Part shown: positions 1-38,160 of the stretch, piece after piece
Layout: each line of letters opens with the position of its first letter
Numbering within the stretch: the first letter of the stretch is position 1
Origin: a virus
Taxonomy: Duplodnaviria; Heunggongvirae; Uroviricota; Caudoviricetes
Direction: 5' to 3' (one strand)
IMG/VR virus record: IMGVR_UViG_2636415906_000002
DNA: 38,857 nucleotides
Made by a program: the position numbers and the translations under genes
The notes under the pieces: generated by a model
What the model was told of the DNA's origin: nothing
Databases searched by the model: none
What the model saw: the letters and a program-made list of their open reading frames with translations, nothing else

Positions 1-893
1 TTTAATACCTCTTTGTTTACTGGGGTTAATATCTGAGATGGTAGTTCTGAAAGATTCTCTTGTTCAAGTATATGTTGAAAGCTTTTATTCATCATTATGA
101 TGTTAAAAATCTCATTTACTATTAGTAGGTTGGTTTTTATGAATTTTGAGTTGTTATAAACAGATTTATGTTCAGCGATACTATTTTCATAAAGCTCAAT
201 CAACTCCTCTGCAGTCATCCTTTTTGATGGTTTGTGATAATAAAATCCGGCTGCTTTTGCACCTTTATTCCCAACTGTTCTTTGATTTAGAATGTGTTTT
301 ATCTTTATAATGTCCCGACTTTTTATTAATTTTTTATCATATGCTTCGGTAAGAATATCTTGTGCTTCCTCAGTTTCACATCTTGCAAATTGCACTGCGA
401 GATACAGAGGCAAATTACCCCGTTCGACTGCTGAGAGAAGTTTATGCTCTCCCTTATCAAGTAGCATATTAATACTGCTCACCCAGTTCGATGAATATCC
501 AGTAATCTCACTTATTTCGGAGTCTGAAAGTCCTCTGATTTTCATGTCTTTAATCACCTGTAATAACTCATTAGAACGTGGTCTTCTCCTTGCAATGTTT
601 TCAACTAAACTCATAACGTAAGCATCTTCTTCTGATACATCTCTTATAATTGCTGGAATAATAGTTTCACCTAATGCAACGAGAGCCTCTATTCTCCCTT
701 GACCACAAATTAAAGCATATTTGAAATCGCCTTCATCAATAGCTCTTACGCTTATTGGCTTGCTTAATCCTCTTTTTTTTATGCTTTCCTTTATTTCTTC
801 ATGCACTACCTTATTTCTTGTTCGTGGGTTAAGAAATTTTATTTTTGCAATCTCAATTTGAATTATTGGGAATTCATTTTTTTCAGGCAGCAT
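1..893 (-). CDS. ParB/RepB-like N-terminal nuclease-domain protein (partial; C-terminus beyond window start)
   Basis: Manual reverse-complement translation from ATG 893..891 (RBS GAGGGA upstream) stays open to the window edge (about 297 codons); N-terminus IQIEIAKIKFLNPRTRNKVVHEEIKESIKKRGLSKPISVRAIDEGDFKYALICGQGRIEALVALGETIIPAIIRDVSEEDAYVMSLVENIARR fits the ParB/Srx fold with a GQGR arginine motif; AT-rich; start overlaps stop of upstream recombinase by 11 nt. Absent from ORF track because it has no in-window stop. Confidence 0.55.
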   Translation of the reverse strand, partial: MLPEKNEFPIIQIEIAKIKFLNPRTRNKVVHEEIKESIKKRGLSKPISVRAIDEGDFKYALICGQGRIEALVALGETIIPAIIRDVSEEDAYVMSLVENIARRRPRSNELLQVIKDMKIRGLSDSEISEITGYSSNWVSSINMLLDKGEHKLLSAVERGNLPLYLAVQFARCETEEAQDILTEAYDKKLIKSRDIIKIKHILNQRTVGNKGAKAAGFYYHKPSKRMTAEELIELYENSIAEHKSVYNNSKFIKTNLLIVNEIFNIIMMNKSFQHILEQENLSELPSQILTPVNKEVL

Positions 894-2721: not shown

Positions 2722-3951
2722 TTATGCGGCAATAACTTTGCATTTTTGAGACGAAACATAGTCACTCCACCATTGCATGAGAACCACCCGTTCAGTGAGA
2801 TACTCTGCACGATTGTAGGCTGCAATTATTTCATCTTTCTTCGAGTGGGCAAGGGCGGCTTCTAAGACATCAGTCCTAAACTTGCCAGACTCCTCAGCAG
2901 CCGTTCTAGCAATGGATCGCATACCGTGAGCTACAAGCTCACCTCCGAAACCCATACGGATTATGGCCGCATTAGCTGTTTGTTCATGCATGTGATTGAG
3001 TGGAGCTTTGATACTGGGGAACACCCACTCTCTATGCCCGCTGATGACTTTCATTAAATCCAAAACTCGCAAAGCTTCTTTGCTCAGTGGAACTTTGTGA
3101 GGCTTCTTCATTTTCATAAACTCCGCCGGGATGTTCCACATGCCAGTTTCAATATCAATATCTGACCATCTTGTGCGAACAGCTTCACCTGGGCGAACCC
3201 ATGTGAGAAGTTGCCACTCAATCAGTAGCCTTGTTTCCAAACGGATAGAAGCATTGTTTAGAGCAACCAAGAAGCGAGGGAGTTCGGAAGGGGGTAATGC
3301 TGGCATATTCTGTTTTTTTGGCTTGCTGAACCGTTGCCCCAGGTTGTCTGCCGGGTTGAATTCTATGAGTTCTTCTGTTGCTGCATAGCGGAAAATTTCA
3401 TTCAGGCGGGATATGATGCGGCGAAGTGTTTCAAGGACACCTCGTTTTTCTATGGGTTCTAAATGCTGTTTAAGCATTTTAGGGCGAATCTCCTTAATTG
3501 GGGTATCACCCAATGTGGAAAAGATATTTCTCTCTAGGCTTCGCCAGATGTCGTTAGCATGATCTTGGGAGATGCCTGACGTTTTGACTTTCTCATCAAG
3601 CCACTTCTTGGCTACTGCTTGAAATGTATGTTCCGTGGCATCTTTCAGTGCATTGGCTTTTTGGTTGTTATGAACTTGGGGGTCTATACCATTTGTAAGC
3701 AACGACAAGTATTCATCACGTAAAGCTCGTGCCTTCGCAAGTGTAAGGTGAGGATAGGTTCCTAAGCTCACCTTAGTTCGCTTTTTGGTCACAGGCACTG
3801 CATATCTGAAATACCAATTTTTCTTCCCTCCCTTCGCCAGGGGAGCGATTCGCAACAGCAAACCATCGCCGTCAAAAAGGTTAACCTCTTTTTCGGCAGG
3901 TTTGGTGCTTTTGATTTCAGTGTCAGTGAGCTTCTTAGCGATTTTGGCCAT
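2722..3951 (-). CDS. tyrosine integrase, P4/CP4-57 IntA family
   Basis: ORF 2722..4032; probable true start ATG at 3951 giving MAKIAKKLTDTEIK...FDGDGLLLRI...WYFRY, the typical N-terminus of P4-family integrases; C-terminal catalytic region (GMRSIARTAAEESG...AYNRAEYL); sits directly downstream of an ssrA 3-prime-end copy and terminator. Confidence 0.85.
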   Translation of the reverse strand: MAKIAKKLTDTEIKSTKPAEKEVNLFDGDGLLLRIAPLAKGGKKNWYFRYAVPVTKKRTKVSLGTYPHLTLAKARALRDEYLSLLTNGIDPQVHNNQKANALKDATEHTFQAVAKKWLDEKVKTSGISQDHANDIWRSLERNIFSTLGDTPIKEIRPKMLKQHLEPIEKRGVLETLRRIISRLNEIFRYAATEELIEFNPADNLGQRFSKPKKQNMPALPPSELPRFLVALNNASIRLETRLLIEWQLLTWVRPGEAVRTRWSDIDIETGMWNIPAEFMKMKKPHKVPLSKEALRVLDLMKVISGHREWVFPSIKAPLNHMHEQTANAAIIRMGFGGELVAHGMRSIARTAAEESGKFRTDVLEAALAHSKKDEIIAAYNRAEYLTERVVLMQWWSDYVSSQKCKVIAA

Positions 3952-4049
3952 GTTTGGGACCCTCGATTTTAGGACCCATCTTCGTGGGTCCCATTCAGGG
4001 TGCCATAACTCGTAGTTCTCAGCAATTCTCACTAGACTACAATAGACGT

Positions 4050-4247: not shown

Positions 4248-5294
4248 TTAATGTTCTGTCGCCAATCTGTCGCCATTGTAGGTCAACGAAGGTTGAGCCT
4301 TCCCTTTGTTTGTTACAATTTCATCAAAGATAGCTGGATTATTATCTTTCAGTAATCTTGCTAGTATAATGATTTGCCCAGACGAGCCATCATCCTTGAA
4401 TGAAAGGAAATTATCGGTAATATCAAGAATATCAATGGTAAATTTGAAGTAGGTTTCAATTGTATCGCCAAGTTCAATGCTGGACATGAAGTTAGTAATC
4501 ATTTCATATCCATCAAAGTATAAAGTTGCATGTTCATTTAACTCCATGGGAGTTAGGCAAAGCATTCGATTAAGTTCGGATAAGTGTTTTTCTATTGAAT
4601 GAAGAGATTGCATTTGACGGATTAAAACTTCGGCAAACTGAGAGCCACGATTAGATGAATGTATCTTCTCTAGGTTTTTTAGTATATCAACCCAGTGATT
4701 ATTTACTTCACGTATGTATTCTTTATCTGTATTTTTAGGCCGTCCCTTCTCTGGTGAGCTATTTATGAAAATATATCTATATAGATGTATTGGGTAGTTT
4801 ATTTTATAACTTATCTCTTTAGTACCATAATGACGTTCGCGTTTAATGGTTTTGTTAGGTAAATTGGTGAAATAATCAGTAACGAACTTTAGATGGCTAT
4901 AGTAGCTATCAGATAGATTCTTTTGCTTGGTTTCCTCAATTTGTCGGTTTGTTTGAACTGTGCGGTGTATGTTTGCTACGACAGCAACAAATGGTATGGA
5001 CAAAGAAAGTAAGGCGATAGGAAGCTTGCTAATTGCAATGAAATTATTAAAGCCCTCACTATCAAATTGAGGGGAATGTCCAAGCCAGGAAAATATACCA
5101 AAGTATATCGCTGAAAATACAGGAATCCTAAGTGATTGTTTAAATAAGTATTGACTTGTTAATGGCCTTTCATCCATGTTAAAGCCTTTTTTTGATACGC
5201 ATAGATATAATTCAAGGCATATATATAAAAAATATATTATGATAAGTAAGTACGATATCCATGGGTATTGTGGGATATAGTTATTAACAAGCAC
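4248..5294 (-). CDS. membrane-anchored protein of unknown function (att-proximal prophage cargo)
   Basis: 348-codon ORF with GTG at 5294 overlapping int stop by 11 nt (alternative ATG at 5177 gives 309 aa); 2-3 N-terminal hydrophobic helices then about 240-aa soluble domain with no motif I recognise; markedly AT-rich. Confidence 0.55.
   Translation of the reverse strand: MLVNNYIPQYPWISYLLIIIYFLYICLELYLCVSKKGFNMDERPLTSQYLFKQSLRIPVFSAIYFGIFSWLGHSPQFDSEGFNNFIAISKLPIALLSLSIPFVAVVANIHRTVQTNRQIEETKQKNLSDSYYSHLKFVTDYFTNLPNKTIKRERHYGTKEISYKINYPIHLYRYIFINSSPEKGRPKNTDKEYIREVNNHWVDILKNLEKIHSSNRGSQFAEVLIRQMQSLHSIEKHLSELNRMLCLTPMELNEHATLYFDGYEMITNFMSSIELGDTIETYFKFTIDILDITDNFLSFKDDGSSGQIIILARLLKDNNPAIFDEIVTNKGKAQPSLTYNGDRLATEH
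4256..4276. repeat. tandem CTGTCGCCA 9-mers (candidate integrase arm-type sites, P-arm side of attP)
   Basis: CTGTCGCCA at 4256..4264 and 4267..4275; same 9-mer recurs at 37730..37738 and inverted at 37702..37710 on the other side of the att core. Confidence 0.3.
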
Positions 5295-6324
5295 TTTCTA
5301 ATTTTCTCCATCCAAGGTTAGCAAGAGGATTTTTGGTTACAGCATCTTCCAGATGGTCGGGAGCGAAGTGGGCGTAAATCATTGTCATTTTTATATCGAC
5401 ATGGCCCAGAATATCGCGCAGCACCAGTATGTTTCCGCCATTCATCATAAAGTGACTTGCAAATGTATGTCGTAATACGTGTGTGCATTGCCCTTCTGGT
5501 AGCTCGATACCAGCTCGTTTTACCGCACGTTCAAAAGCTTTCCTACAAGGTGTAAATAATTTTCCCCTATTCTTAGGCAGTTCTTCATATAAATCCTTTG
5601 AAATAGGCACTGTTCGGTTTTTCTTTCCTTTAGTCTTGGTATAAGTGATACGGTATTTTGATACCTGATGACTCTGTAGGTTTTCGGCTTCGCTCCAGCG
5701 TGCGCCGGTGGCCAAGCATATTTTTGCAATCATCAGCAGACTGGGGCTTTGAGAATCAGCACAGGCATCCAGCAGACGTTTAATTTCTTCCGGGGTCAGG
5801 AACGCCAATTCACCCTCAGCAATTTTAAATGTTGGCAGCCCAGCAAGCGGGTTGGGGGCTGACCAGTGGCCCAGCTTTTTCAGTGTACCAAAAACAGATG
5901 ATAGGTTGCGCTGTTCAAGATTTACCGTGCGGGGCTTAACGGGCGACATAAGCGTGCCATCTTCATTTCGTACTTCACCTTTTAACCGTGCTTCGCGGTA
6001 TTTCGTAAACTCACCAGCTGTCAGTTCTGAGGCGATGGGATCGCCTAGACCATTACAGATAATTCTAAGTTTCGCCATGAGGCGCTTGGGGTCTGCGAGT
6101 GTTTGACCATACAGGGAATACCACAGCTCAATTAATTCTGATAGATGTCGCCGATCTTCCTTTTCCCCTAGCCATGGTTTTTTGTTCACTTCTTCCATTG
6201 TGAAGCTTTCAAACGCAATGGCTTCGCCTTTGGTAGCAAATTGCTTACGCACGCGCTTACCATTGCGTCCATTGGGATAGCACTCACACAACCATTTTCC
6301 GTTCGGCTGTTTTCTGATGGTCAT
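5284..6324 (-). CDS. int: P2/186-type tyrosine integrase
   Basis: 346 aa; LATGARWSEAENL ... HVLRHTFASHF ... IKMTMIYAHF catalytic R / HxxR / Y pattern; positioned next to attL and downstream of repressor as in P2. Confidence 0.9.
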   Translation of the reverse strand: MTIRKQPNGKWLCECYPNGRNGKRVRKQFATKGEAIAFESFTMEEVNKKPWLGEKEDRRHLSELIELWYSLYGQTLADPKRLMAKLRIICNGLGDPIASELTAGEFTKYREARLKGEVRNEDGTLMSPVKPRTVNLEQRNLSSVFGTLKKLGHWSAPNPLAGLPTFKIAEGELAFLTPEEIKRLLDACADSQSPSLLMIAKICLATGARWSEAENLQSHQVSKYRITYTKTKGKKNRTVPISKDLYEELPKNRGKLFTPCRKAFERAVKRAGIELPEGQCTHVLRHTFASHFMMNGGNILVLRDILGHVDIKMTMIYAHFAPDHLEDAVTKNPLANLGWRKLESAC

Positions 6325-13227: not shown

Positions 13228-13321
13228 CGCGCGCTGAGATATGAATTAGTAATAGTTGTTTTAATCTATCTTGTTAAGTAAATTAACGATCAACCCATGG
13301 TCATGTCTAGGGAATGATGAT

Positions 13322-15103
13322 ATGAATTTTGATGCAACTCCTTTAAATATTAAAAATATACTTTCTGTTAAACAGCGTTATGTGATTCCACGGAATCAAC
13401 GAGAATTTAGTTGGGAAAAGTTACAACTTGATGAATTGTGGCAAGACATAATAAGAAATATAAAATTAAATCCCAAAGGGGATGACTTTGAATTCAATGA
13501 GTACTTTATTGGTACAATTGTATTGTCTGGTGCTGACAGTGATAATGTTTTGGAGATTGTTGATGGTCAGCAGCGTTTCAGTGTTATTACAATTCTACTT
13601 TCTTTAATTTCTAGGTTTTTAAGAAAAAATGGGAAGGCCGAATTTGCTGATGATATTTTTAAAACATATATCGTAACCGCAAATCAGACGTTCAATAGAA
13701 ATTCTGTCAGTTCTAATGGCGACTCAGTAGTTGAGAAGCTTTCTAAAAATAGTGACAGGGCTTTTTTTAAACTAAAATTCCAAGATAGAGTTGAGCATAA
13801 AGCTGATGTGACTTGCGATGAAGATAAAAAGATTCAATATGCTGGGTTGTATTTAAGTAGAAAGCTAGGAAAGAAAGCATTATGTTCTTCTTTGTTGCGT
13901 GACGGTGCAGTAAAGTATAAAAAGGAAGATTACCTTTTTTGCTTGAATGCCGTTTACAATATGGTTACTAATTATCTTAAATTAGTAAGGATATCAGTAG
14001 GCAAGGAAGATGACGCGTATGATATTTTCGAGGTTTTGAATGCAAGGGGAATAAACTTAAGCTCCCTTGATCTGATTAAAAATAAAGTTTTCCAGAGTTG
14101 TATTGAAACATATCCAATAGATAAAGCCAAAGAGAAATGGGATTATATTACTAATTGCATCGAAGCTAGAGATAGTAACGCTACAATGGTTGATTATGTC
14201 AGGTGTTGGTGGCTTTCTAAGTTTAATTATATAGGTGAAGATCAACTATACCGTGCCTTTAAAAGAGAGATAAATGATGGTGTTTATGGATTAACTGCAA
14301 TTTCATTTTTGGATGAGTTGCATAAAGATGTTGATTTATATTGTAAGATAATTTCTCCAGATATTGATGATTGGCCTCAACAGGATCAGCGAGATATTTA
14401 CAATTCACTTAAAGCATTTGAAATATTCAATGTTTCAATCCCTCGCCCATTCATTTTGTCATTATTAAGAAAAAGAAGAGATAAATCTAGAAGTCTTTCG
14501 CAAAAAAGTTTAATAGAGTGTCTAATGTGTTTAGAGAGATTCCACTTTAGATTTAATGCTATTTGCCGATTAAGACCCTCTGGCATAGACGCCAAGTATT
14601 CAGTATTAGCAGTAAGCCTTGATAAAGCTACTAATAAACGTAGTATCGAATCAACCATTAGTGAAGCAATAGCATACTTTTCTGCGAAAAGTCCAAATGA
14701 AAAAGTATTCAATGAGGCATTTGTTAAAAATTTATTTTATACAAATAAAAAAGCCTCCCAGCGTAAGCTCATAATGTATATTTTTGAACGTTTTGAAAAG
14801 AAATTGCGAGGAACTAATGAGTTAAAATTAGACTTAGTTTCACTCGAGCATATTGGTGCACAAAGTAGTTTTGACTCAGAGGTTGTTGGATTAATGGGGA
14901 ATCTTCTTCCTCTTTGCTTTACTTTGAATGAATCATGTAAAAATGATAGCTTAAGTAAAAAAATAAACGAGTATAAGAAGTCAAACCTTAAGGTGGTTAA
15001 TGAGTTTATTGATGAGTATTCATCTAACGATGAGGAATGGAATGCCCAAAAAGTTCAGATTAGAACATTATCTATGTCAGCGAAGGCCTATAATATAATC
15101 TAA
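13322..15103 (+). CDS. DUF262/DUF1524 two-domain nuclease, GmrSD/BrxU-like type IV restriction-type defence protein
   Basis: 593 aa from ATG 13322; N-terminal DGQQR motif (13562..13576) typical of DUF262 ParB-like NTPase domain; C-terminal LEHIGAQ ... GNLLPL ... NESCKN His-Me finger-like motif (E509/H510 at 14846..14851); AT-rich; own terminators on both sides. Confidence 0.7.
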   Translation: MNFDATPLNIKNILSVKQRYVIPRNQREFSWEKLQLDELWQDIIRNIKLNPKGDDFEFNEYFIGTIVLSGADSDNVLEIVDGQQRFSVITILLSLISRFLRKNGKAEFADDIFKTYIVTANQTFNRNSVSSNGDSVVEKLSKNSDRAFFKLKFQDRVEHKADVTCDEDKKIQYAGLYLSRKLGKKALCSSLLRDGAVKYKKEDYLFCLNAVYNMVTNYLKLVRISVGKEDDAYDIFEVLNARGINLSSLDLIKNKVFQSCIETYPIDKAKEKWDYITNCIEARDSNATMVDYVRCWWLSKFNYIGEDQLYRAFKREINDGVYGLTAISFLDELHKDVDLYCKIISPDIDDWPQQDQRDIYNSLKAFEIFNVSIPRPFILSLLRKRRDKSRSLSQKSLIECLMCLERFHFRFNAICRLRPSGIDAKYSVLAVSLDKATNKRSIESTISEAIAYFSAKSPNEKVFNEAFVKNLFYTNKKASQRKLIMYIFERFEKKLRGTNELKLDLVSLEHIGAQSSFDSEVVGLMGNLLPLCFTLNESCKNDSLSKKINEYKKSNLKVVNEFIDEYSSNDEEWNAQKVQIRTLSMSAKAYNII

Positions 15104-25793: not shown

Positions 25794-26391
25794 TCTGCTG
25801 CCACCGGGTTCAACTTCACTGGAGCGCCGACTGGCGCAAACCTGTAGCGGGATTTCTGATCTGCAGGTGCCGCTGCGTGACTTGTGGAATCCGGCTACCT
25901 GTCCGGTCAGCTTCCTGCCTTATCTCGCCTGGGCGTTCTCTGTGGATCGCTGGGACGAGGGCTGGACAGAAAGCGTCAAGCGCCAGGTGGTGAAGGATGC
26001 TTTTTATATTCATCAGCATAAAGGGACCACCAGTGCCGTGCGGCGGGTGGTGGAGCCGTTCGGATTCCTGATCCGCATTATTGAGTGGTGGCAGACCGGA
26101 GAAACACCGGGCACGTTTCGCCTGGATATCGGCGTGCAGGACCAGGGCATCACTGAAGATACCTATCTGGAACTTGAGCGACTGATAAGCGATGCCAAAC
26201 CATGTAGCCGCCACATGATCGGCATGTCCATCAATCTGCAGACCAGCGGCCCGCATTGGGTGGGAGCCGCCAGCTATCTTGGCGAAGAAATCACGATCTA
26301 TCCGTATATCAACGAAACGATTATTTCCGGTGGCACCGCGCATGAAGGCGGGGCGGTCCATGTTATTGACACAATGAGAGTGAATCCATGA
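25786..26391 (+). CDS. I: baseplate / tail-fibre anchoring protein
   Basis: 201 aa, P2 gpI position. Confidence 0.8.
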   Translation: MNSLLPPGSTSLERRLAQTCSGISDLQVPLRDLWNPATCPVSFLPYLAWAFSVDRWDEGWTESVKRQVVKDAFYIHQHKGTTSAVRRVVEPFGFLIRIIEWWQTGETPGTFRLDIGVQDQGITEDTYLELERLISDAKPCSRHMIGMSINLQTSGPHWVGAASYLGEEITIYPYINETIISGGTAHEGGAVHVIDTMRVNP

Positions 26392-27746
26392 GCACAAAAT
26401 TTTATACCCTGCTGACGGATATTGGCGCGGCGAAACTTGCCAGCGCCGCCGCGCTCGGTGTGCCGCTAAAAATTACCCATATGGCGGTGGGCGATGGCGG
26501 TGGAGTATTGCCAACGCCGGACGCAAAGCAGACGGCACTGGTAAATGAGAAACGCCGGGCTGCGCTGAATATGCTTTATATCGACCCGCAGAACAGCAGC
26601 CAGATTATTGCCGAACAGGTGATCCCTGAAAACGAGGGCGGTTGGTGGATACGTGAAGTGGGCTTGTTTGATGAGTCCGGGGCATTGATTGCCGTGGGCA
26701 ACTGCCCGGAAAGCTATAAGCCGCAACTGGCTGAAGGTAGCGGGCGCACTCAGACCGTGCGCATGGTGCTGATTACCAGCAGCACGGACAATATCACCCT
26801 GAAAATCGACCCTGCTGTAGTGCTGGCAACCCGCAAGTATGTGGATGACAAGGCACTGGAGCTGAAGGTGTACGCGGATGATCAGATGGCAAAACATCTT
26901 GCCGCACCGGACCCGCATTCACAGTACGCGCCAAAAGCCAGCCCGACATTTACCGGAACCCCCAAAGCGCCAACGCCAGCGGCGGGGAATAATACCACGC
27001 AGGTTGCGACCACTGCGTTTGTACAGGCGGCACTGACGGCCCTTATTAATGGTGCGCCAGCCACGCTGGACACGCTGAAAGAAATAGCCGCAGCCATTAA
27101 CAATGATCCGAATTTCAGTACCACCATTAACAATGCGCTGGCACTAAAAGCACCGTTGTCGAGTCCGGCACTCACCGGAACGCCAACAGCCCCCACGGCG
27201 GCGCAGTCGGTCAACAATACACAGATTGCCACTACGGCTTTTGTGAAATCGGCGATTGCAGGAATGGTGGGTTCTGCACCTGCTGCACTGGATACACTGA
27301 ACGAACTGGCGGCGGCACTGGGGAATGATCCGAACTTTGCCACGACAATGCTTAATGCGCTGGCAGGTAAACAACCGCTGGACAATACGCTTACCAATTT
27401 GAGTGGAAAGGATGTAGCTGGTCTTCTCACATACCTTGGTTTAAGAGCAAGCGGGCAGTACACCGATAATTTGTTATTTACAGGTCCTGATGGTCTTAAG
27501 ATTCAGGTGTTTCGCCGGACGCTCGCAAATTTGACTACTGTTGGTGTAGTAAATTCTGTGCCAGTGACTTTCCCTGTCCCGTTCCCTGTTAATTGCTGGG
27601 GCGTTTTTTCTACCAAATTAACATGGGTTCAGATAACTAACTCATGCGAGTGGGTAAGCAATACAGGATTTACCGCTCAGGTCATGATGAATATTGCTGT
27701 AAATACAAACACCTCAGACGCTATGTTTTTAGCTATAGGATATTAA
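26388..27746 (+). CDS. H: tail fibre protein: constant N-region (residues 1..350) + currently expressed variable C-terminus
   Basis: 452 aa; two about 70-aa tail-fibre repeats (26943..27155, 27165..27374); invertase crossover site inside the gene at codon 350. Confidence 0.85.
   Translation: MSTKFYTLLTDIGAAKLASAAALGVPLKITHMAVGDGGGVLPTPDAKQTALVNEKRRAALNMLYIDPQNSSQIIAEQVIPENEGGWWIREVGLFDESGALIAVGNCPESYKPQLAEGSGRTQTVRMVLITSSTDNITLKIDPAVVLATRKYVDDKALELKVYADDQMAKHLAAPDPHSQYAPKASPTFTGTPKAPTPAAGNNTTQVATTAFVQAALTALINGAPATLDTLKEIAAAINNDPNFSTTINNALALKAPLSSPALTGTPTAPTAAQSVNNTQIATTAFVKSAIAGMVGSAPAALDTLNELAAALGNDPNFATTMLNALAGKQPLDNTLTNLSGKDVAGLLTYLGLRASGQYTDNLLFTGPDGLKIQVFRRTLANLTTVGVVNSVPVTFPVPFPVNCWGVFSTKLTWVQITNSCEWVSNTGFTAQVMMNIAVNTNTSDAMFLAIGY
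27424..27449. repeat. invertase crossover site 1 (hix/gix-like): TTCTCACATACC-TT-GGTTTAAGAGCA
   Basis: 26-bp imperfect palindrome inside H; core dinucleotide TT at 27436..27437. Confidence 0.5.
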
Positions 27747-27747
27747 T

Positions 27748-28188
27748 ATGAATCGTTTTGTGTTCAGTCCATCTGAGTCCCGTTTTTATGCCATCGAGTG
27801 GCAGGCTGATTATGTTGATAATAATTGTTGGCCACATGATGCCATTAACGTTAGTGACAGCATTTATTATGAGTTTTCCGGCACTCCCCCTACAGGTAAG
27901 CAACTTATAACTTTAAATAACATGCCAGCATGGGGTGATATTCCTCCACCTACACGAGAAGAATTAATTGTCGCTGCTGATGTGGAGAAGCAAAAAAGAA
28001 TAGATTTAGCCAATGATTACATGAACGGTAAGCAATGGCCTGGTAAAGCAGCTATTGGTCGTCTGAAAGGTGAGGAACTGGCACAATATAATTTGTGGCT
28101 GGATTATCTGGACGCACTGGAGCTGGTCGATACCGCCAGTGCGCCAGATATTGAATGGCCTACGCCTCCGGCAGTTCAGGCCAGATGA
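27748..28188 (+). CDS. G: tail fibre assembly chaperone
   Basis: 146 aa directly after H. Confidence 0.8.
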   Translation: MNRFVFSPSESRFYAIEWQADYVDNNCWPHDAINVSDSIYYEFSGTPPTGKQLITLNNMPAWGDIPPPTREELIVAADVEKQKRIDLANDYMNGKQWPGKAAIGRLKGEELAQYNLWLDYLDALELVDTASAPDIEWPTPPAVQAR

Positions 28189-28762
28189 CATCTGGCGCGG
28201 TGCTGGTATCAGTTGCCGTCACCGCGTCAATGTAATCCAGTACAGCGTTAAGGCTGGTTGTTTCTGCCTGCGTCAGTTTACGTCCGGCCTGCAATTTCAG
28301 CTGAATCAGACTGATTGAAGCCATTGCAGTATCAATCAGTGACTGGCGCTGTGCTTCTGCTGCATCTACTGCGGCGCTATGCTGTGCTTCGGTATCCGTC
28401 ACCCATTTCTCACCATCCCATTTATCGTATGGCGTTAACGGGGCGATAGTGGTTGTATTATCAGGGTAATCACCCGGAGCTGTGATTTCTTTTGATTCTC
28501 CTGTTTCGGTGCTAAAGACGATTTCACCGCGATGGTCTGGCACATATTCCCATGAGTTAAAATCTACAGATCGGCAGATTGCATAACCAGCTTTGTATGT
28601 GCCAGGGGCATCTAAACAGGAATATGCAGGGATACCGACACCAACGGCAAGATATTCAGTTGATGTGGAAATATATTCCCGTGTTTCGCCATCATAGTTA
28701 TAGACGGTAATATTCCCCGCCTTTGTAGCAATAAACTCGCTATTTAATACAGCGTTATCCAT
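28160..28762 (-). CDS. alternative tail fibre assembly chaperone (inverted cassette)
   Basis: 200 aa on minus strand, convergent with G, coupled TAATG to the alternative fibre cassette. Confidence 0.7.
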   Translation of the reverse strand: MDNAVLNSEFIATKAGNITVYNYDGETREYISTSTEYLAVGVGIPAYSCLDAPGTYKAGYAICRSVDFNSWEYVPDHRGEIVFSTETGESKEITAPGDYPDNTTTIAPLTPYDKWDGEKWVTDTEAQHSAAVDAAEAQRQSLIDTAMASISLIQLKLQAGRKLTQAETTSLNAVLDYIDAVTATDTSTAPDVIWPELPEA

Positions 28763-29304
28763 TATGCAGCCCTCACGATATAGTTAAATGCAATATTCCG
28801 TGGACGGGTTTCATTTATCCCATATGCTGTTGTTCTCTGATTCCCGACAAAATATCCATTTGGATTAGAAGATACAGAATAATCATCAAAATCAAGTGGG
28901 CTATCAGCACCCGGCGTCAGGCTTGCAATATATCCTCTTCCCATAACTTCTGATGCTGGTATTTCTTTTGTACGATAATCACTAACTCTGAAGAGCTGCC
29001 CTTGGTGGGTGTGTGATTCCACTCCTCCATTCTGAAGACTTAGCAAGGCACGTACAGCATCAATACCACGCCCGTCATCCCAGCCACGAATAAACTCACC
29101 ACGTAAATCAGGCAATTTATTTGTCGGATAAGCCTTTGCCAGTTCCGGGTATTCTTCAGCAGAAAAAGCGGCACCGTTGCATTTCAGCCAGCCTGTTGGC
29201 GGAGTGGCTGAAGGCCACGGAACAGGCACCCCAACCGGTAATGCAGAGCCTTCTCCCAAACCAACGTTTAAGAAAATGCAGAGGTAACAGCTAACTGGCA
29301 TCAT
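28762..29304 (-). CDS. alternative tail-fibre C-terminal cassette (promoterless; fused to H codons 1..350 only after inversion)
   Basis: minus-strand ORF passing through crossover site 2 in the same codon phase as H at site 1; conserved fibre C-terminal motifs PVGVPVPWP...GW..CNG...YP.L...RGEFIRGWDDGRG. Confidence 0.65.
   Translation of the reverse strand: MMPVSCYLCIFLNVGLGEGSALPVGVPVPWPSATPPTGWLKCNGAAFSAEEYPELAKAYPTNKLPDLRGEFIRGWDDGRGIDAVRALLSLQNGGVESHTHQGQLFRVSDYRTKEIPASEVMGRGYIASLTPGADSPLDFDDYSVSSNPNGYFVGNQRTTAYGINETRPRNIAFNYIVRAA
29251..29276. repeat. invertase crossover site 2 (hix-like): TTCTCCCAAACC-AA-CGTTTAAGAAAA
   Basis: 26-bp imperfect palindrome; core AA is the reverse complement of site-1 core TT, i.e. 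inverted configuration. Confidence 0.5.
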
Positions 29305-29331
29305 CTCCGGTTTTTATTCAGGGGGATGATC

Positions 29332-29898
29332 ATGCTTATTGGCTATGTACGCGTGTCAACAAATGACCAGAACACCGATTTGCAACGCAATGCACTGAAC
29401 TGTGCGGGATGTGAGCGGATTTTTGAGGATAAAATCAGTGGCACCAAGTCCGACAGACCGGGGCTGAAAAAGCTGCTCAGGACACTATCGGCAGGAGACA
29501 CGCTGGTTGTCTGGAAGCTGGACAGACTGGGGCGCAGTATGCGGCATCTTGTTACGCTGATAGAAGAGCTGCGCCAGCGTGGCGTGAATTTCCGAAGCCT
29601 GACTGACAGTATTGATACCAGCACCCCAATGGGCCGTTTCTTTTTTCATGTCATGGGTGCCCTGGCTGAAATGGAACGCGAACTGATAGTTGAACGTACC
29701 AGGGCGGGGCTGGCTGCAGCTCGTGCTAAAGGCAGAGTAGGTGGACGCCGTCCTAAGTTGACCAGCGAACAGTGGTCACAGATTGGGCGTTTACTCGAGG
29801 CCGGAGAATCAAGACAGCGTATTGCACTGATTTTTGATGTAGGCGTTTCTACCATTTATCGAAAATTTCCGGCAAATAAGAACAATAAATCTCCCTGA
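29332..29898 (+). CDS. DNA invertase, Gin/Cin/Pin/Hin-family serine recombinase
   Basis: MLIGYVRVSTNDQNTDLQRNAL...DTLVVWKLDRLGRS...MGRFFFHVMGALAEMERELIVERT - near-identical architecture to Gin/Hin from memory; catalytic Ser in VRVSTNDQ. Confidence 0.9.
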   Translation: MLIGYVRVSTNDQNTDLQRNALNCAGCERIFEDKISGTKSDRPGLKKLLRTLSAGDTLVVWKLDRLGRSMRHLVTLIEELRQRGVNFRSLTDSIDTSTPMGRFFFHVMGALAEMERELIVERTRAGLAAARAKGRVGGRRPKLTSEQWSQIGRLLEAGESRQRIALIFDVGVSTIYRKFPANKNNKSP

Positions 29899-30040: not shown

Positions 30041-31213
30041 ATGGCTCAGGATTACCACCACGGGGTGCGCGTTGTTGAAGTCAACGAAGGCACCCGATCC
30101 ATTACCACGGTGAGCACCGCCATCGTGGGTATGGTCTGCACGGGCGATGATGCCGATGCAAAAATGTTTCCTCTTAATAAACCCGTGCTGATCACTGATG
30201 TGCTGACTGCCAGCGGTAAAGCGGGTGAGTCAGGCACGCTGGCCCGTTCGCTGGATGCCATCGCTGACCAGGCAAAACCCGTGACCGTTGTTGTGCGTGT
30301 GCCGCAGGGTGAAACGGAAGAAGAAACCACGACCAATATCATCGGAGCAGTGACCGCTGAAGGTAAAAAAACAGGCATGAAAGCCCTGTTATCTGCCCAG
30401 TCACAGCTCGGCGTTAAACCGCGCATTCTCGGCGTGCCAGGTCACGACACGAAGGCGGTAGCTACTGAGTTGCTGAGCGTGGCGCAAAGCCTGCGTGGAT
30501 TTGCTTACCTGTCAGCGTATGGTTGCAAGACAGTGCAGGAAGCAATCACTTACCGTGAAAACTTCAGTCAGCGTGAAGGAATGCTGATCTGGCCCGACTT
30601 TACTGGCTGGGACACGGTGCTGAATGCCGAAGCAACGGCTTATGCCACCGCCCGTGCGCTTGGTCTGCGCGCCAAAATTGACGAGCAGACCGGATGGCAC
30701 AAAAGCCTGTCCAACGTGGGCGTTAACGGTGTCACCGGAATTTCTGCAGATGTGTTCTGGGATCTGCAGGACCCGGCAACCGATGCAGATCTGCTGAACC
30801 AGAACGACGTCACCACGCTTGTGCGTAAAGACGGTTTCCGCTTCTGGGGTTCCCGCTGCCTGAGTGATGACACGCTCTTTGCCTTCGAAAACTACACCCG
30901 CACGGCGCAGGTGCTGATGGACACGATGGCAGAAGCACACATGTGGGCGGTGGATAAACCGCTTAACCCGTCGCTGGCCCGCGACATTATCGAAGGTATC
31001 CGCGCCAAAATGCGCAGCCTGGTCAGTCAGGGCTATCTCATTGGTGGTGATTGCTGGCTGGATGAGTCGGTGAACGACAAAGACACGCTGAAAGCCGGAA
31101 AACTCACCATCGACTACGACTACACGCCAGTGCCGCCACTTGAAAACCTGATGCTGCGTCAGCGCATCACCGATCAGTACCTGGTGAATTTCGCCAGCCA
31201 GGTCAGCGCGTAA
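30041..31213 (+). CDS. FI: contractile tail sheath protein
   Basis: ATG 30041 with RBS AGGAGG inside ORF 30008..31213. Confidence 0.9.
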
Positions 31214-31222
31214 GGGGACAAC

Positions 31223-31738
31223 ATGGCTTTACCACGCAAATTAAAACACCTGAACCTGTTTAACGACGGGAACAACTGGCAGGGGATCGTTGAGTCGCTG
31301 ACGCTGCCGAAATTTACCCGCAAATATGAGAAGTATCGCGGCGGCGGAATGCCGGGTGCGGTGGATGTGGATCTGGGGCTTGATGACAGTGCGCTGGACA
31401 CAGAATTTTCCATTGGTGGTACTGAATTGCTGCTGTTTAAACAGATGGGTAAAGCCACGGTGGATGGCATCCAGCTGCGCTTTACCGGCTCTATTCAGCG
31501 TGACGATACCGGGGAAGTGCAGGCCGTGGAGCTTGTCGTGCGTGGACGTCACAAAGAAGTGGATTCCGGCGAGTGGAAGACGGGCGAAAGCAACACCACC
31601 AAAGTGACCAGTACCAACAGCTACGCGAAGCTGACTATAAATGGTGAGGTGCTCTATGAAGTGGACCTTATCAACATGGTGGAAATTGTGGACGGTGTGG
31701 ACCTGATGGAAGCGCACCGCAACGCCCTCGGCCTCTGA
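31223..31738 (+). CDS. FII: tail tube protein
   Basis: 171 aa directly after sheath. Confidence 0.9.
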   Translation: MALPRKLKHLNLFNDGNNWQGIVESLTLPKFTRKYEKYRGGGMPGAVDVDLGLDDSALDTEFSIGGTELLLFKQMGKATVDGIQLRFTGSIQRDDTGEVQAVELVVRGRHKEVDSGEWKTGESNTTKVTSTNSYAKLTINGEVLYEVDLINMVEIVDGVDLMEAHRNALGL

Positions 31739-31792: not shown

Positions 31793-32095
31793 ATGAGCGA
31801 TAAGCAGACTGAAAAGACTATTCAACTGGATACCCCCATCAAGCGCGGTAAAACAGAAATCACCGAAATTGTGCTGCGTAAACCGCAGTCCGGTGCGCTG
31901 CGCGGTACACGCCTGCAGGCCATTATGGATATGGATGTAAACGCGATGATGACCGTGATCCCCCGCATCTCCAGTCCGGCACTGACTGCACAGGAAATTG
32001 CAGAGATGGACCCGGCAGATCTCACTGCCATGTCGGTTGAGGTTGTCACTTTTTTGTTGAAGAAGTCGGTGCTTGCCGGTTTACCGACAGCCTGA
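31793..32095 (+). CDS. E: tail assembly chaperone E (zero-frame product)
   Basis: 100 aa between tube and tape measure. Confidence 0.75.
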   Translation: MSDKQTEKTIQLDTPIKRGKTEITEIVLRKPQSGALRGTRLQAIMDMDVNAMMTVIPRISSPALTAQEIAEMDPADLTAMSVEVVTFLLKKSVLAGLPTA

Positions 32096-32229
32096 CGGTT
32101 GACGATCTGGTGGCAGATATCGCCACCATTTTTCACTGGCCGCCATCCGTTACTGACGTTATGCCGCTGACCGAAGTGCTGGAATGGCGGTATAAAGCGA
32201 TTCAGAGAAGCGGGGCCAACGATGAGTGA
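31793..32229 (+). CDS. E: E+E' fusion by programmed -1 ribosomal frameshift at T_TTT_TTG (32050..32056)
   Basis: slippery heptamer in phase; -1 frame stays open to TGA at 32227..32229, overlapping T start. Confidence 0.6.
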
Positions 32230-35200
32230 TAACAACCTGCGTCTGCAGGTCATTCTTAATGCGGTTGACAAGCTCACCCGCCCATTTCGATCTGCGCAGG
32301 CCAGTTCAAGAGAACTGGCTGCTGCTGTCAAAAAATCCCGCGATGCAATAAAGCAGCTTGATCAGGCCGGGAGCAGTCTGGACAGCTTCCGAAAGCTGCA
32401 GGCAGAAAATCAGAAATTAGGCGACAGGCTGAACTATGCCCGCCAGCGTGCAAATTTGCTCAGTCAGGAACTGGGAGCGATGGGGCCGCCTTCGCAACGT
32501 CAGGTTGTTGCTCTGGGCCGTCAACGGCTGGCTGTTCAGCGCCTGGAAGAACGCCAGAAAAAGCTGCAGCAGCAGACGGCGCTTGTGCGTGCTGAACTGT
32601 ACCGGGCGGGAATTTCTGCGAAAGACGATGCGGGAGCAACTGCCCGTTTAGCCCGTGAAACATCACGTTATAACCAGGAGCTTTCGAAACAGGAGGCGCG
32701 GCTGAAGCGACTGGGGGAAGCTCAGCGCAGGATGAATGCAGCGCGTGCCAGTTATGCCCGTTCGCTGGAGGTGCGTGATCGTATTGCAGGTGCCGGAGCC
32801 ACCACCACGGCTGCAGGGCTGGCAATGGGTGCGCCAGTGATGGCGGCAGTAAAAAGCTATACCAGCATGGAAGATGCCATGAAAGGTGTGGCAAAGCAGG
32901 TCAATGGTCTGCGTGACGATAATGGCAACCGCACTGCACGTTTTTATGAAATGCAGGATGCCATCAAGGCTGCCAGCGAACAGTTGCCGATGGAAAACGG
33001 TGCGGTGGACTTCGCTGCACTGGTTGAAGGTGGTGCGCGCATGAACGTCGCAAACCCTGACGACAGCTGGGAAGATCAGAAACGTGACCTGCTGGCCTTC
33101 GCCAGTACGGCAGCAAAGGCGGCAACAGCCTTTGAGCTGCCAGCGGATGAACTGTCAGAAAGTCTGGGGAAAATCGCCCAGCTCTACAAAATCCCCACCC
33201 GCAATATTGAACAGCTCGGTGATGCGCTGAACTATCTGGATGATAACGCCATGTCGAAAGGGGCAGACATCATTGATGTGATGCAACGTCTGGGCGGTGT
33301 GGCTGACCGTCTGGATTATCGTAAAGCGGCGGCGCTGGGTTCCACCTTCCTGACACTGGGCGCTGCGCCAGAGGTTGCAGCCAGTGCAGCAAACGCGATG
33401 GTGCGTGAATTGTCCATTGCCACCATGCAAAGCAAGAGTTTCTTTGAAGGGATGAATCTGCTGAAACTCAATCCTGAAGTGATTGAAAAGCAGATGACGA
33501 AGGATGCGATGGGAACCATCCAGCGCGTGCTGGAGAAGGTAAACGCGCTGCCGCAGGACAAGCGCCTGTCTGCCATGACTATGTTGTTTGGTAAAGAGTT
33601 TGGCGATGACGCGGCGAAACTGGCAAACAACCTGCCGGAACTGCAGCGTCAGTTAAAACTGACAGCGGGCAATGATGCGCTCGGCTCCATGCAGAAAGAA
33701 TCCGACATTAACAAGGATTCACTTTCTACGCAGTGGTTGCTGGTCAAAACCGGAGCGCAGAACACCTTCAGCAGCCTGGGCGAAACGCTGCGCCAGCCGC
33801 TGATGGATATTCTGTACACGGTGAAAAGCGTCACGGGGGCGTTGCGTCGCTGGGTGGAAGCTAACCCGGAACTGACAGGCACACTGATGAAAGCATCGGC
33901 TGTTGTGGCTGCGGTTACCGTCGGCCTCGGCACCTTAGCGGTGGCGCTGGCTGCAGTGCTGGGGCCGCTGGCAGTGATCCGTCTGGGATTCTCTGTGTTG
34001 GGTATCAAAACGTTATCTTCCGTTACGGCAGCAGTAACTCGAACCAGCAGCGCGTTGTCCTGGCTGGCCGGCGCACCACTGGCACTGCTGCGACGCGGGC
34101 TTGCTTCATCGGGCAACGCCGCAGGTTTACTTACTGCGCCGTTGTCGTCTTTGCGCCGCACGGCATCACTGACGGGAAATGTCCTGAAAACTGTAGCAGG
34201 TGCGCCGGTTGCACTTTTGCGGTCTGGATTATCCGGTTTACGTGCTGTTGCTGTGATGTTTATGAATCCTCTGGCGGTACTGCGCGGTGGACTGGCCGCC
34301 GCAGGCACGGTGCTGCGAGTACTGGCATCTGGTCCACTGGCGATGCTGCGCGTTGCCCTGTATGCCATATCTGGTCTGTTAGGTGCTCTGCTCAGTCCGA
34401 TAGGTCTTGTGGTTACTGCACTGGCGGGCGTGGCGCTGGTTGTCTGGAAATACTGGCAACCCATCACCGCATTTCTCGGTGGCGTGGTGGAAGGATTCAA
34501 AGCGGCGGCAGGTCCCATCAGTGCAGCGTTCGAACCGCTTAAGCCCGTGTTCCAGTGGATTGGCGACAAAGTGCAGGCGCTGTGGGGCTGGTTTACTGAT
34601 CTGCTGACGCCCGTTAAGTCGACCTCTGCCGAACTGCAGAGCGCAGCGGCAATGGGGCGGCGATTCGGGGAGGCACTGGCGGAAGGGCTGAATATGGTCA
34701 TGCATCCGCTGGACTCCCTGAAATCCGGCGTTTCCTGGTTGCTGGAGAAGCTCGGCATTGTCAGTAAAGAGGCCGCAAAGGCAAAACTGCCGGAAAGCGT
34801 GACGCGTCAGCAACCTGCGACGGTGAATGCAGACGGTAAAGTGATGATGCCATCGGGTGGTTTTCCATCATGGGGATATGGCTTTGCGGGGATGTATGAC
34901 AGCGGCGGGTATATCCCGCGCGGGCAGTTTGGCATCGTCGGTGAAAACGGGCCGGAAATTGTTAACGGCCCGGCAAATGTGACCAGCCGGAGAAATACAG
35001 CTGCACTGGCTGCCGTTGTTGCCGGAATGATGGGCGTTGCTGCCGCGCCAGCAGAGCTTCCACCGTTGCACCCTTTGGCACTTCCCGCGAAAGGTGGAGA
35101 AGCAATTGTGAGTCGCGCAGCCACTGTGCCGCTCGTTCAACGGATTGAGGCACCGACGCAGATCATCATTCAGACGCAGCCAGGACAAAGTGCGCAGGAT

Positions 35201-35299
35201 ATTGCGCGGGAGGTGGCACGCCAGCTTGATGAACGTGAACGCAGGCTGAAGGCAAAAGCCAGGAGTAACTACAGCGATCAGGGGGGATACGACGCATGA
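32222..35299 (+). CDS. T: tail tape measure protein
   Basis: 1025 aa; internal Ala/Leu/Gly-rich tandem repeats of about 21 aa. Confidence 0.9.
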   Translation: MSDNNLRLQVILNAVDKLTRPFRSAQASSRELAAAVKKSRDAIKQLDQAGSSLDSFRKLQAENQKLGDRLNYARQRANLLSQELGAMGPPSQRQVVALGRQRLAVQRLEERQKKLQQQTALVRAELYRAGISAKDDAGATARLARETSRYNQELSKQEARLKRLGEAQRRMNAARASYARSLEVRDRIAGAGATTTAAGLAMGAPVMAAVKSYTSMEDAMKGVAKQVNGLRDDNGNRTARFYEMQDAIKAASEQLPMENGAVDFAALVEGGARMNVANPDDSWEDQKRDLLAFASTAAKAATAFELPADELSESLGKIAQLYKIPTRNIEQLGDALNYLDDNAMSKGADIIDVMQRLGGVADRLDYRKAAALGSTFLTLGAAPEVAASAANAMVRELSIATMQSKSFFEGMNLLKLNPEVIEKQMTKDAMGTIQRVLEKVNALPQDKRLSAMTMLFGKEFGDDAAKLANNLPELQRQLKLTAGNDALGSMQKESDINKDSLSTQWLLVKTGAQNTFSSLGETLRQPLMDILYTVKSVTGALRRWVEANPELTGTLMKASAVVAAVTVGLGTLAVALAAVLGPLAVIRLGFSVLGIKTLSSVTAAVTRTSSALSWLAGAPLALLRRGLASSGNAAGLLTAPLSSLRRTASLTGNVLKTVAGAPVALLRSGLSGLRAVAVMFMNPLAVLRGGLAAAGTVLRVLASGPLAMLRVALYAISGLLGALLSPIGLVVTALAGVALVVWKYWQPITAFLGGVVEGFKAAAGPISAAFEPLKPVFQWIGDKVQALWGWFTDLLTPVKSTSAELQSAAAMGRRFGEALAEGLNMVMHPLDSLKSGVSWLLEKLGIVSKEAAKAKLPESVTRQQPATVNADGKVMMPSGGFPSWGYGFAGMYDSGGYIPRGQFGIVGENGPEIVNGPANVTSRRNTAALAAVVAGMMGVAAAPAELPPLHPLALPAKGGEAIVSRAATVPLVQRIEAPTQIIIQTQPGQSAQDIAREVARQLDERERRLKAKARSNYSDQGGYDA

Positions 35300-35781
35300 T
35301 GATGGTGCTGGGATTGTACGTGTTTATGCTGCGCACCGTTCCGTATCAGGAACTGCAGTATCAACGCAGCTGGCGACATGCGGCAAACAGTCGGGTAAAC
35401 CGACGTCCGTCCACGCAGTTTCTGGGACCGGAAAACGACATGCTGACGCTTTCCGGTGTTCTTATGCCGGAAATAACAGGCGGCAGGCTGTCGTTGCTGG
35501 CACTGGAGCAGATGGCAGAACAGGGGAAAGCATGGCCCCTGATTGAAGGCAGCGGCACGATTTACGGCATGTATGTGATTGAGGGACTGAATCAGACTAA
35601 AACGGAGTTTTTCCGCGACGGTATGCCGCGCCGGATTGAGTTCACCCTGTCGCTCAAACGAGTGGATGAATCCCTGTCCGATATGTTCGGTGATCTCAGT
35701 GCGCAACTGAATAATCTGCAGGACACGGCAACGTCTGCCTTAAGCGATATCAGTAAAACGGTGGGAGGGCTGCTGTCGTGA
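35296..35781 (+). CDS. U: tail protein U
   Basis: 161 aa, ATGA overlap with T. Confidence 0.85.
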   Translation: MMMVLGLYVFMLRTVPYQELQYQRSWRHAANSRVNRRPSTQFLGPENDMLTLSGVLMPEITGGRLSLLALEQMAEQGKAWPLIEGSGTIYGMYVIEGLNQTKTEFFRDGMPRRIEFTLSLKRVDESLSDMFGDLSAQLNNLQDTATSALSDISKTVGGLLS

Positions 35782-36878
35782 ATTTCAGCTCAGAACTGCT
35801 TAACAAAGGCAACAAAACTCCCGCATTCAGCATCAGTATTGAGGGCAGGGATATCACCACTGTGCTGGATAACCGCCTGATGAGTTTGACGCTGACGGAT
35901 AACCGGGGCTTTGAAGCGGACCAGCTTGATCTGGAGTTGGATGACGCTGACGGAAAAATCGTGCTGCCGCGCCGTGGTGCGGTCATTACGCTGGCGCTGG
36001 GCTGGAAGGGGCAGCCGCTTTTCCCGAAAGGGGCATTCACAGTGGACGAGATTGAATACACTGGCGCACCGGACCGCCTGACTATCCGGGCGCGAAGTGC
36101 TGATTTTCGGGAAACGCTGAATACCCGCCGTGAAAAATCGTGGCATAAGACCACCGTCGGGGAAGTGGTGAAGGAAATAGCCGCGCGGCACAAGCTGAAG
36201 ATGGCACTGGGTAAAGACCTGTCGGATAAGCCCGTGGAGCATATAGACCAGACTAATGAGAGTGACGGCAGTTTTCTGATGCGGCTGGCGCGACAGTACG
36301 GTGCCATCGCGTCGGTGAAAAATGGCAATCTGTTATTCATCCGGCAGGGGCAGGGCAAAAGCGCCACTGGTAAACCTCTGCCAGTGATCACTATCACACG
36401 CAAGGACGGCGACAGTCACCGCTTTACCCTGGCAGATCGCGGAGCCTACACGGGCGTAATTGCCAGCTGGTTGCATACCCGCGAACCTGCGAAGAAAGAA
36501 AGCACCACGGTGAAGCGTAAGCGCAGAACTAAGAAGCAGAAGAAAGAGCCAGAAGCGAAGCAGGGCGATTACCTGGTGGGTACGGATGAAAACGTGCTGG
36601 TACTTAATCGCACTTATGCCAACCGGAGCAACGCCGAACGAGCGGCGAAAATGCAGTGGGAACGCCTGCAACGCGGCGTTGCGTCATTTTCGCTACAACT
36701 GGCAGAAGGGCGGGCAGATCTCTACACGGAAATGCCTGTGAAGGTCAGTGGTTTTAAACAGCCGATAGATGATGCGGAATGGACCATTACGACTCTGACA
36801 CATACCGTCAGCCCGGATAACGGTTTTACAACCAGTATTGAACTCGAAGTGAAGATTGATGATCTTGAAATGGAATAA
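35778..36878 (+). CDS. D: tail protein D (late control D family)
   Basis: 366 aa, last tail gene before ogr. Confidence 0.85.
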   Translation: MNFSSELLNKGNKTPAFSISIEGRDITTVLDNRLMSLTLTDNRGFEADQLDLELDDADGKIVLPRRGAVITLALGWKGQPLFPKGAFTVDEIEYTGAPDRLTIRARSADFRETLNTRREKSWHKTTVGEVVKEIAARHKLKMALGKDLSDKPVEHIDQTNESDGSFLMRLARQYGAIASVKNGNLLFIRQGQGKSATGKPLPVITITRKDGDSHRFTLADRGAYTGVIASWLHTREPAKKESTTVKRKRRTKKQKKEPEAKQGDYLVGTDENVLVLNRTYANRSNAERAAKMQWERLQRGVASFSLQLAEGRADLYTEMPVKVSGFKQPIDDAEWTITTLTHTVSPDNGFTTSIELEVKIDDLEME

Positions 36879-37793: not shown

Positions 37794-37842
37794 TATTTGG
37801 TGGAGCTGGCGGGAGTTGAACCCGCGTCCGAAATTCCTACAT
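37794..37842. repeat. attR: 49-bp direct repeat overlapping the 3-prime end of intact ssrA
   Basis: identical to 4114..4162. Confidence 0.85.
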
Positions 37843-38160
37843 CCTCGGTACTACATGCTTAGTCAGTCTTTACATTCGCTTGCCAGCTGCGGACGGACAC
37901 GCCACTAACAAACTAGCCTGATTAAGTTTTAACGCTTCAACCCCAGGCAGGGCTTCCACGCGATCTCTTTTGGGTTTGACCTCTCTTGATCCCCGTCCTA
38001 AGAGCGGAGGCTAGGGAGAGAGGGCTCTAAGCAGGTTATTAAGCTGCTAAAGCGTAGTTTTCGTCGTTTGCGACTATTTTTTGCGGCTTTTTACGAGGCC
38101 AACCGCCCCTCGGCATGCACCTTGGGTTTCGCAAATCCCGTCGAATCCAGAATCAGCCCC
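37798..38160 (-). ncRNA. ssrA: tmRNA (SsrA), 363 nt
   Basis: reverse complement reads GGGGCUGAUUCUGGAUUCGACGGG ... tag-reading-frame region ... GGGUUCAACUCCCGCCAGCUCCACCA, matching enterobacterial tmRNA from memory. Confidence 0.95.

Follow-up and report, generated by a model that had tools for sequence, protein, structure and literature searches.

The DNA analysed here (the window, 38,857 nucleotides) harbours, from about 5.3 to 37.7 kb, a complete P2-type prophage. It carries genes for an integrase, a CI repressor, gpA, the portal, terminase and scaffold proteins, a P2-family capsid protein, the baseplate proteins J and I and a tail fibre, together with an invertase and an inverted alternative fibre segment. 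The prophage is of the Elveevirus/Felsduovirus type (Escherichia phage 500465-1, Cartapus), and over the tail region it shares about 99% identity with Escherichia phage 500465-1, Escherichia phage Cartapus (Peduoviridae, Elveevirus) and Klebsiella phage KP12.

The tail operon has the gene order FI-FII-E/E'-T-U-D. The tail sheath gene FI, upstream of FII, runs from a probable ATG at 30041 to 31213. A mechanical list of open reading frames begins the same gene at GTG 30008; we consider the ATG the likely start because it is preceded by a strong Shine-Dalgarno (SD) sequence (AGGAGG, -11.7 kcal/mol) and yields the 390 aa annotated in Cartapus. FII, which encodes the tail tube protein (31223-31738, plus strand; PF04985 Phage_tube, E = 8.8e-60), lies directly upstream of E. 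Gene E itself (31793-32095, plus strand) encodes a protein of 100 aa that we assign as a tail assembly chaperone from its match to PF10109 (Phage_TAC_7; E = 1e-18, 67.5 bits for a cutoff of 25, residues 9-88), a family described in Pfam as "tail assembly chaperone proteins E, or 41 or 14". The tape measure gene T follows (32222-35299, plus strand, 1025 aa; PF10145, E = 2e-18), and U (35296-35781) and D (35778-36878) come after it. The E/E' pair thus occupies the interval between FII and T, and the end of E' lies over the start of T.

Near its 3' end, gene E contains the heptamer TTTTTTG (32050-32056, plus strand). Position 32050 is the third codon position of the frame that opens at ATG 31793, so that the heptamer has the X_XXY_YYZ phase and reads T_TTT_TTG. 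Its zero-frame context is GTC ACT TTT TTG TTG AAG, with ACT TTT TTG specifying Thr-Phe-Leu, and the zero-frame stop (TGA, 32093-32095) comes 12 codons later. A stop at 32038-32040 blocks the -1 frame, which opens at 32041, just five codons before the heptamer. From G32056 it continues for 57 sense codons to a TGA at 32227-32229, which overlaps the tape measure frame, begun at ATG 32222, by 8 nt. The first-pass annotation had reported a slippery, correctly phased T_TTT_TTG close to the 3' end of E, a -1 frame open for 58 codons up to 32227-32229 and an overlap of its stop with the tape measure start. All three statements hold, the 58 codons being the 57 sense codons plus the TGA.

The stretch read in the -1 frame (E' extension, 32056-32229, plus strand) matches the full 37-position profile of PF06528 (Phage_P2_GpE; E = 4e-19, 68.2 bits for a cutoff of 23). 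Tandem slippage at 32050-32056 would join it to E (31793-32056 plus 32056-32229) in a fused product, E+E', of 145 aa, whose predicted tryptic junction peptide is ISSPALTAQEIAEMDPADLTAMSVEVVTFLVEEVGACR. Reading the -1 frame from 32041, the first ATG, GTG or TTG is GTG 32110. Public records begin there a separate 'GpE family phage tail protein' of 39 aa (32110-32229, plus strand), which we take to be the C-terminal portion of E+E'. Scanning NCBIfam gave no match for E, E+E' or E', nor did a search of PDB sequences with E+E' at E <= 1, and a single-sequence AlphaFold model of E+E' was unusable (mean pLDDT 45).

Several other features of the prophage and its surroundings were recorded. An invertible tail-fibre module (27748-29898), which P2 itself does not have, lies directly upstream of the FI-FII-E-T operon. 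The fibre gene H (26388-27746) and an assembly gene (27748-28188) are on the plus strand; on the opposite strand are an alternative version of the assembly gene (28160-28762) and the C-terminal segment of a fibre, which contains a Collar domain (28762-29304), and a Gin/Cin/Hin-type serine invertase (Resolvase and HTH_7 domains) occupies 29326-29898. An ORF of 610 aa (13271-15103) with GmrSD_N and GmrSD_C domains, resembling type IV restriction endonucleases, separates the replication gene A from the portal gene, a variable position for defence cargo in P2-like phages. At the right end of the prophage is the tmRNA gene ssrA (37798-38160, minus strand; tag ANDENYALAA). To the left, beyond the prophage integrase (5284-6324), we found another tyrosine integrase, which has an Arm-DNA-binding domain (2722-4032, minus strand), and, left of it, a large serine recombinase (883-2439, minus strand); a 348-aa ORF between the two integrases (4248-5294) has no Pfam match. 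The second integrase and the serine recombinase beside the prophage suggest that islands may be arranged in tandem at the ssrA site.

Conservation of the heptamer and of both reading frames

A search with the fused 145-aa sequence retrieved 419 phage records. In 386 of these, at least 80% of its length is covered by two separate pieces, each in its own frame. Among 19 loci that we compared, 17 carry an in-phase T_TTT_TTN, including those of P2, 186, phiCTX, KS5, FLC5 and RE-2010, and the -1 extension is mostly 53-61 codons long, reaching 71-73 in two. In an alignment of 17 phages, the fusion proteins align from end to end, and five residues of the part encoded in the -1 frame are invariant (A108, D109, F114, A136 and R139).

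In order to avoid circularity, an independent sample was drawn from the viral contigs of IMG/VR by searching for the E' motif A-D-(I/V)-A-x-(I/V)-F-H-W alone, written as a degenerate DNA pattern. It comprised 106 unique contexts. An in-phase T6N is present in 101 of these (N being G in 83, C in 8, A in 7 and T in 3) and G_GGA_AAG in two; the three exceptions are an apparently damaged site with T5 and two sites with TCTTTTATCAAACGG. The -1 extension spans 54-74 codons with a median of 57, exactly the length found in the window. Past the heptamer, the zero frame goes on for between 1 and 20 codons, and the -1 product aligns throughout.

The contigs that depart from the T6N pattern deserve a brief description. 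Two of them, L092 (approximately 4500-4610) and L126 (approximately 4900-5010), have a clear E' motif without a canonical heptamer and read ...GAATCTTTTATCAAACGG... instead; they may employ a different shift site, for example by a P-site slip on T_TTT. The contig in which T5 replaces T6 (L091, approximately 1660-1775) looks damaged. G_GGA_AAG is found at the equivalent position in the Mannheimia phage phiMhaA1 (L013, 694-700) and in L089 and L099. Its occurrence in a minority of E/E' homologues indicates at least one replacement of the slippery sequence within the family, with no change in geometry.

Coding selection was followed through positional entropy in 35 cluster representatives of identical geometry. 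Upstream of the heptamer, the third position of the zero frame is the most variable (1.44 vs 1.16 and 0.70). From +25 to +59, a segment upstream of the annotated E' start, it is the third position of the -1 frame (1.48 vs 1.04 and 0.70). Since the variable third position changes frame and no -1 start codon precedes this segment, selection switches frame at the heptamer. At its 5' end, then, the E' frame is under coding selection and has neither a start codon nor a ribosome-binding site of its own, a statement to be read together with the start-capable Met/Val codon (32110 in the window) of 55 of the 62 cluster representatives.

Sequences flanking the heptamer

Just upstream of the heptamer, codons -4 and -3 mostly read RAG GTG. 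In the motif-selected loci AAG is used 40 times vs 2 for AAA and GAG 40 times vs 3 for GAA, and 67 of the 87 valine codons are GTG. The bias persists after clustering at 85% identity and comparison with the codon usage of each locus: AAG 20 of 22 (8.7 expected), GAG 23 of 26 (12.3 expected) and GTG 35 of 48 (14.7 expected). For loci with a GC content below 0.56, AAG was counted in 15 of 15 cases vs 5.4 expected. Elsewhere in the same E genes the three codons make up 41, 38 and 40%, respectively (Fisher p = 2e-6, 3e-7 and 1e-5). The resulting consensus, AAGGTGATC, is complementary to the 3' tail of 16S rRNA, with a mean energy of the anti-SD duplex of -10.7 kcal/mol vs -6.65 for synonymous recodings. 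The pooled z is -10 (control blocks, +1.6 to -4.9), and as these z-scores and the Fisher tests treat the 85%-identity representatives as independent, they overstate the significance of the RAGGTG bias. A sharp energy trough is located at the 9-mers that begin at -11, with -8.6 kcal/mol in the window, -7.9 as the family mean and a background of about -2 to -3.

In the window, the corresponding sequence is GAGGT (32039-32043, plus strand; GAG GTT at codons -4 and -3), which ends 6 nt before the heptamer. Taken alone, it is indistinguishable from its own synonymous null (p = 0.25); with the energy trough and the family-wide codon bias, it is a candidate 5' stimulator that would act by pairing with the ribosome. 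It is possible, if rather doubtful, that P2-type sites in general, the window included, carry a conserved, 16S-complementary and synonymously selected RAGGTGATC, 2-7 nt before T_TTT_TTG, that tunes the -1 rate at a spacing of less than 10 nt. We found no description of an SD-like element at the P2 site in the searchable literature, in which the primary study of 2002 is represented by papers that cite it (PMC3091744 and PMC3931495). The family-wide synonymous signal for this upstream element offers a testable answer to the old puzzle of how P2-like phages attain a useful and stable shift rate without a downstream structure.

Such a downstream structure is not supported in the window, where the 84 nt past the heptamer give z = -2.0 and shorter pieces -0.1 to -1.8, or in the family, where the mean z of 62 cluster representatives (-0.33) is the same as that of the control. 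In line with this, PMC3091744 states that P2, KS5, KS14 and KL3 lack downstream hairpins. With no structure supported on this side, the efficiency of the shift would rest on the heptamer and perhaps on the 5' element.

In most relatives, the dual-coding overlap does contain a small palindrome 2-3 nt past the heptamer, at +9 to +20; it reads CCGAnnTCGG and is often part of CGCCGAnnTCGGCG. In the window its place is taken by TTGAAGAAGTCGG (32059-32070), by which the 5' arm is lost. The palindrome is probably too near the shift site to stimulate.

Alternative readings of the overlap

The E-E' fusion could also arise during transcription, if RNA polymerase added one U within T6 and the U7 messenger were then translated normally. 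The site does consist of a homopolymer run, which is T7 in some relatives (Smp131, L025, L059 and L125), and slippage of this type is known on A/T runs in bacteria (PMC5009743). However, the same review cites runs of about nine for bacteria, and the family keeps T6 in 83 of 101 sites rather than lengthening it. In two members the site is G_GGA_AAG, which is a classical heptamer of ribosomal slippage and contains no long homopolymer, and the conserved 16S-complementary element just upstream fits a ribosome and not a polymerase. The passages on P2 in PMC3091744 and PMC3931495, moreover, describe its shift as translational. We therefore regard transcriptional slippage as a quite improbable source of the fusion.

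Slightly less probable still is that E' is an independent small gene, initiated at GTG 32110 and producing a free GpE protein of 39 aa with no frameshift at all. This is how the sequence is annotated in Cartapus, in p13P477T-2 and in a RefSeq E. coli chromosome, which contain exactly that CDS, and a start-capable codon (ATG or GTG) precedes the ADIA motif in 55 of 62 cluster representatives, being ATG in 49. That same codon is, however, the conserved Met/Val of the M-A-D-I-A motif: it is ATC, ATT or ACG in the remaining seven representatives, and in the 17-phage alignment VHML, RsoM1USA, 1F53_PE003 and H905 have Trp, Ala, Tyr or Glu there. The SD sequence before GTG 32110 is weak (-3.7 kcal/mol, vs -7 to -12 at the starts of FI, FII, T, U and D). 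Purifying selection in the -1 frame and a conserved V-D/E-D extend upstream of this GTG, where there is no start codon, and an independent gene would leave the in-phase T6N of 101 of the 106 loci unexplained. In P2, E' is described, in the account given in PMC3931495, as lacking a ribosome-binding site and as being read as an extension of E. The frequency of start-capable codons (55 of 62) nevertheless means that some separate initiation of a short E' may occur.

The separate annotation is widespread. The 39-aa CDS stands alone, with no joined E+E' CDS, in L001 and L002 (1911-2030) and in L139 (618-737), at the place that corresponds to 32110-32229 of the window. The exact locus is present in 995 of 5,426 complete E. 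coli genomes, for which RefSeq gives two separate genes and no joined CDS. As a consequence of this split in a very common prophage lineage, the 145-aa product is missing from protein databases. We see in this an annotation gap and not new biology.

The weight of chance was assessed within the window. TTTTTTG occurs 21 times on its two strands, and a -1 run of at least 57 codons has a background probability of 0.053 (random codon positions in the window's genes). The 41 gene-like ORFs contain 40 in-phase X_XXY_YYZ heptamers, two of which lie within 25 codons of the stop and have an alternative frame running past it: the site at 32050 and the SD of gene U. What places the E/E' arrangement decisively beyond chance is the presence of conserved domains in both frames (PF10109 and PF06528). 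A T-rich codon pair followed by an accidentally open and functionless frame, which 21 copies of the heptamer and a background of 5% could make conceivable, is effectively refuted by the Pfam match of the -1 frame (E = 4e-19), by the conservation of heptamer, phase and extension length across genera with GC contents of 33 to 69%, and by the change in the frame of selection at the heptamer.

The second of these two end-of-gene heptamers, G_GGG_GGA (35281-35287), is in phase three codons before the T stop, with U in the -1 frame, and was considered as a T-U fusion site. We rejected it as a recoding site because it is the SD of U and because the frame relation of T and U varies (-1 in 34 and +1 in 13). 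In relatives, the SD of U at the T/U junction is AGGGGGG, AAGGAGG or GGAGG.

The proposed frameshift and known systems

Taken together, our observations argue, with a probability of about 90%, that programmed -1 ribosomal frameshifting takes place at this site, in a P2-like (Peduoviridae) tail operon, and yields E and E+E'. The first-pass annotation had called it the conserved frameshift of the E/E' tail assembly chaperone pair, and this assignment is supported, at the level of sequence, by the two Pfam families, the synteny, the heptamer in 101 of 106 contexts and the frame switch. Most ribosomes translating E (31793-32095) would stop at 32095 and release the 100-aa chaperone. A minority would slip one base back while tRNA-Phe and tRNA-Leu occupy the TTT TTG of T_TTT_TTG; the slipped tRNAs would re-pair on TTT TTT and reading would go on from G32056 in the -1 frame. 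These ribosomes would finish at 32229, over the tape measure start codon, having made a 145-aa E+E' with the conserved GpE domain as its last 57 residues. If lambda gpG/gpGT and the genetics of P2 are a guide, the E part common to both products could bind the tape measure protein, the E' part would probably recruit tube subunits, and a fixed low shift rate could set the ratio of E to E+E' needed for tail assembly. We infer the slippage at this very site, its rate and the functions of the two proteins. The E/E+E' frameshift as such is already known, as it has been published and described as conserved in P2-like phages. A textbook recoding event was thus correctly identified, and the gain in new biology is small.

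The lambda slippery heptamer is G_GGA_AAG, unlike the one in the window, and the lambda tail is non-contractile whereas that of the phage in the window is contractile. We detected no sequence similarity to lambda G/GT, PF10109 and PF06528 being the only Pfam matches of E, E+E' and E'. The relation to lambda therefore appears to be one of organization and mechanism and not of detectable sequence homology. The work on gpG/gpGT (Levin 1993; Xu, Hendrix and Duda 2004, 2013, 2014), as summarized in PMC5009743, describes two overlapping ORFs between the major tail and tape measure genes, as in the window. The likeness extends, in the same summary, to two products that are both absent from the virion and whose short-to-long ratio matters for tail assembly.

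The E. coli dnaX site offers another comparison. As is proposed for the site in the window, it relies on -1 tandem slippage at a homopolymeric heptamer ending in G and has a 16S-complementary sequence upstream, which in the window is a candidate. Its heptamer is A_AAA_AAG, with established SD-like 5' and hairpin 3' stimulators, whereas the heptamer of the window is U-based and no 3' hairpin is supported there. The SD-like element of dnaX lies 10 nt before the shift site. At the P2-type site, 6-7 nt separate the end of the SD-like core from the heptamer, a shorter distance than in dnaX. Overall, the site in the window departs from the dnaX-type cassette, in which a 5' SD at about 10 nt and a 3' stem-loop accompany A_AAA_AAG. 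The shift efficiency of dnaX is about 50%; that of P2 is lower, reportedly about 10%.

The closest known counterpart is P2 itself. According to the accounts of P2 in PMC3091744 and PMC3931495, through which we cite the original study (Christie et al. 2002, J Bacteriol 184:6522), a -1 shift at TTTTTTG produces an E of 91 aa and an E+E' of 142 aa and recurs as a conserved feature of P2-like phages. Our own reading of the P2 sequence gives exactly these published sizes. Synthesis of the fusion at a low fixed rate, and a need for both proteins in tail assembly, are reported for P2 alone, in studies cited by these two papers. The window differs from P2 in the length of E (100 vs 91 aa) and of E+E' (145 vs 142 aa), in a zero-frame tail past the heptamer of 12 instead of 6 codons, and in the upstream SD-like element, which is GAGGT in the window and AAGGTGGTC in P2. 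In both, TTTTTTG stands in the same phase, the -1 frame opens five codons before it, the extension of 57 codons ends on the start codon of T, and the genes follow the order FI-FII-E/E'-T-U-D; the two fused proteins are 49% identical.
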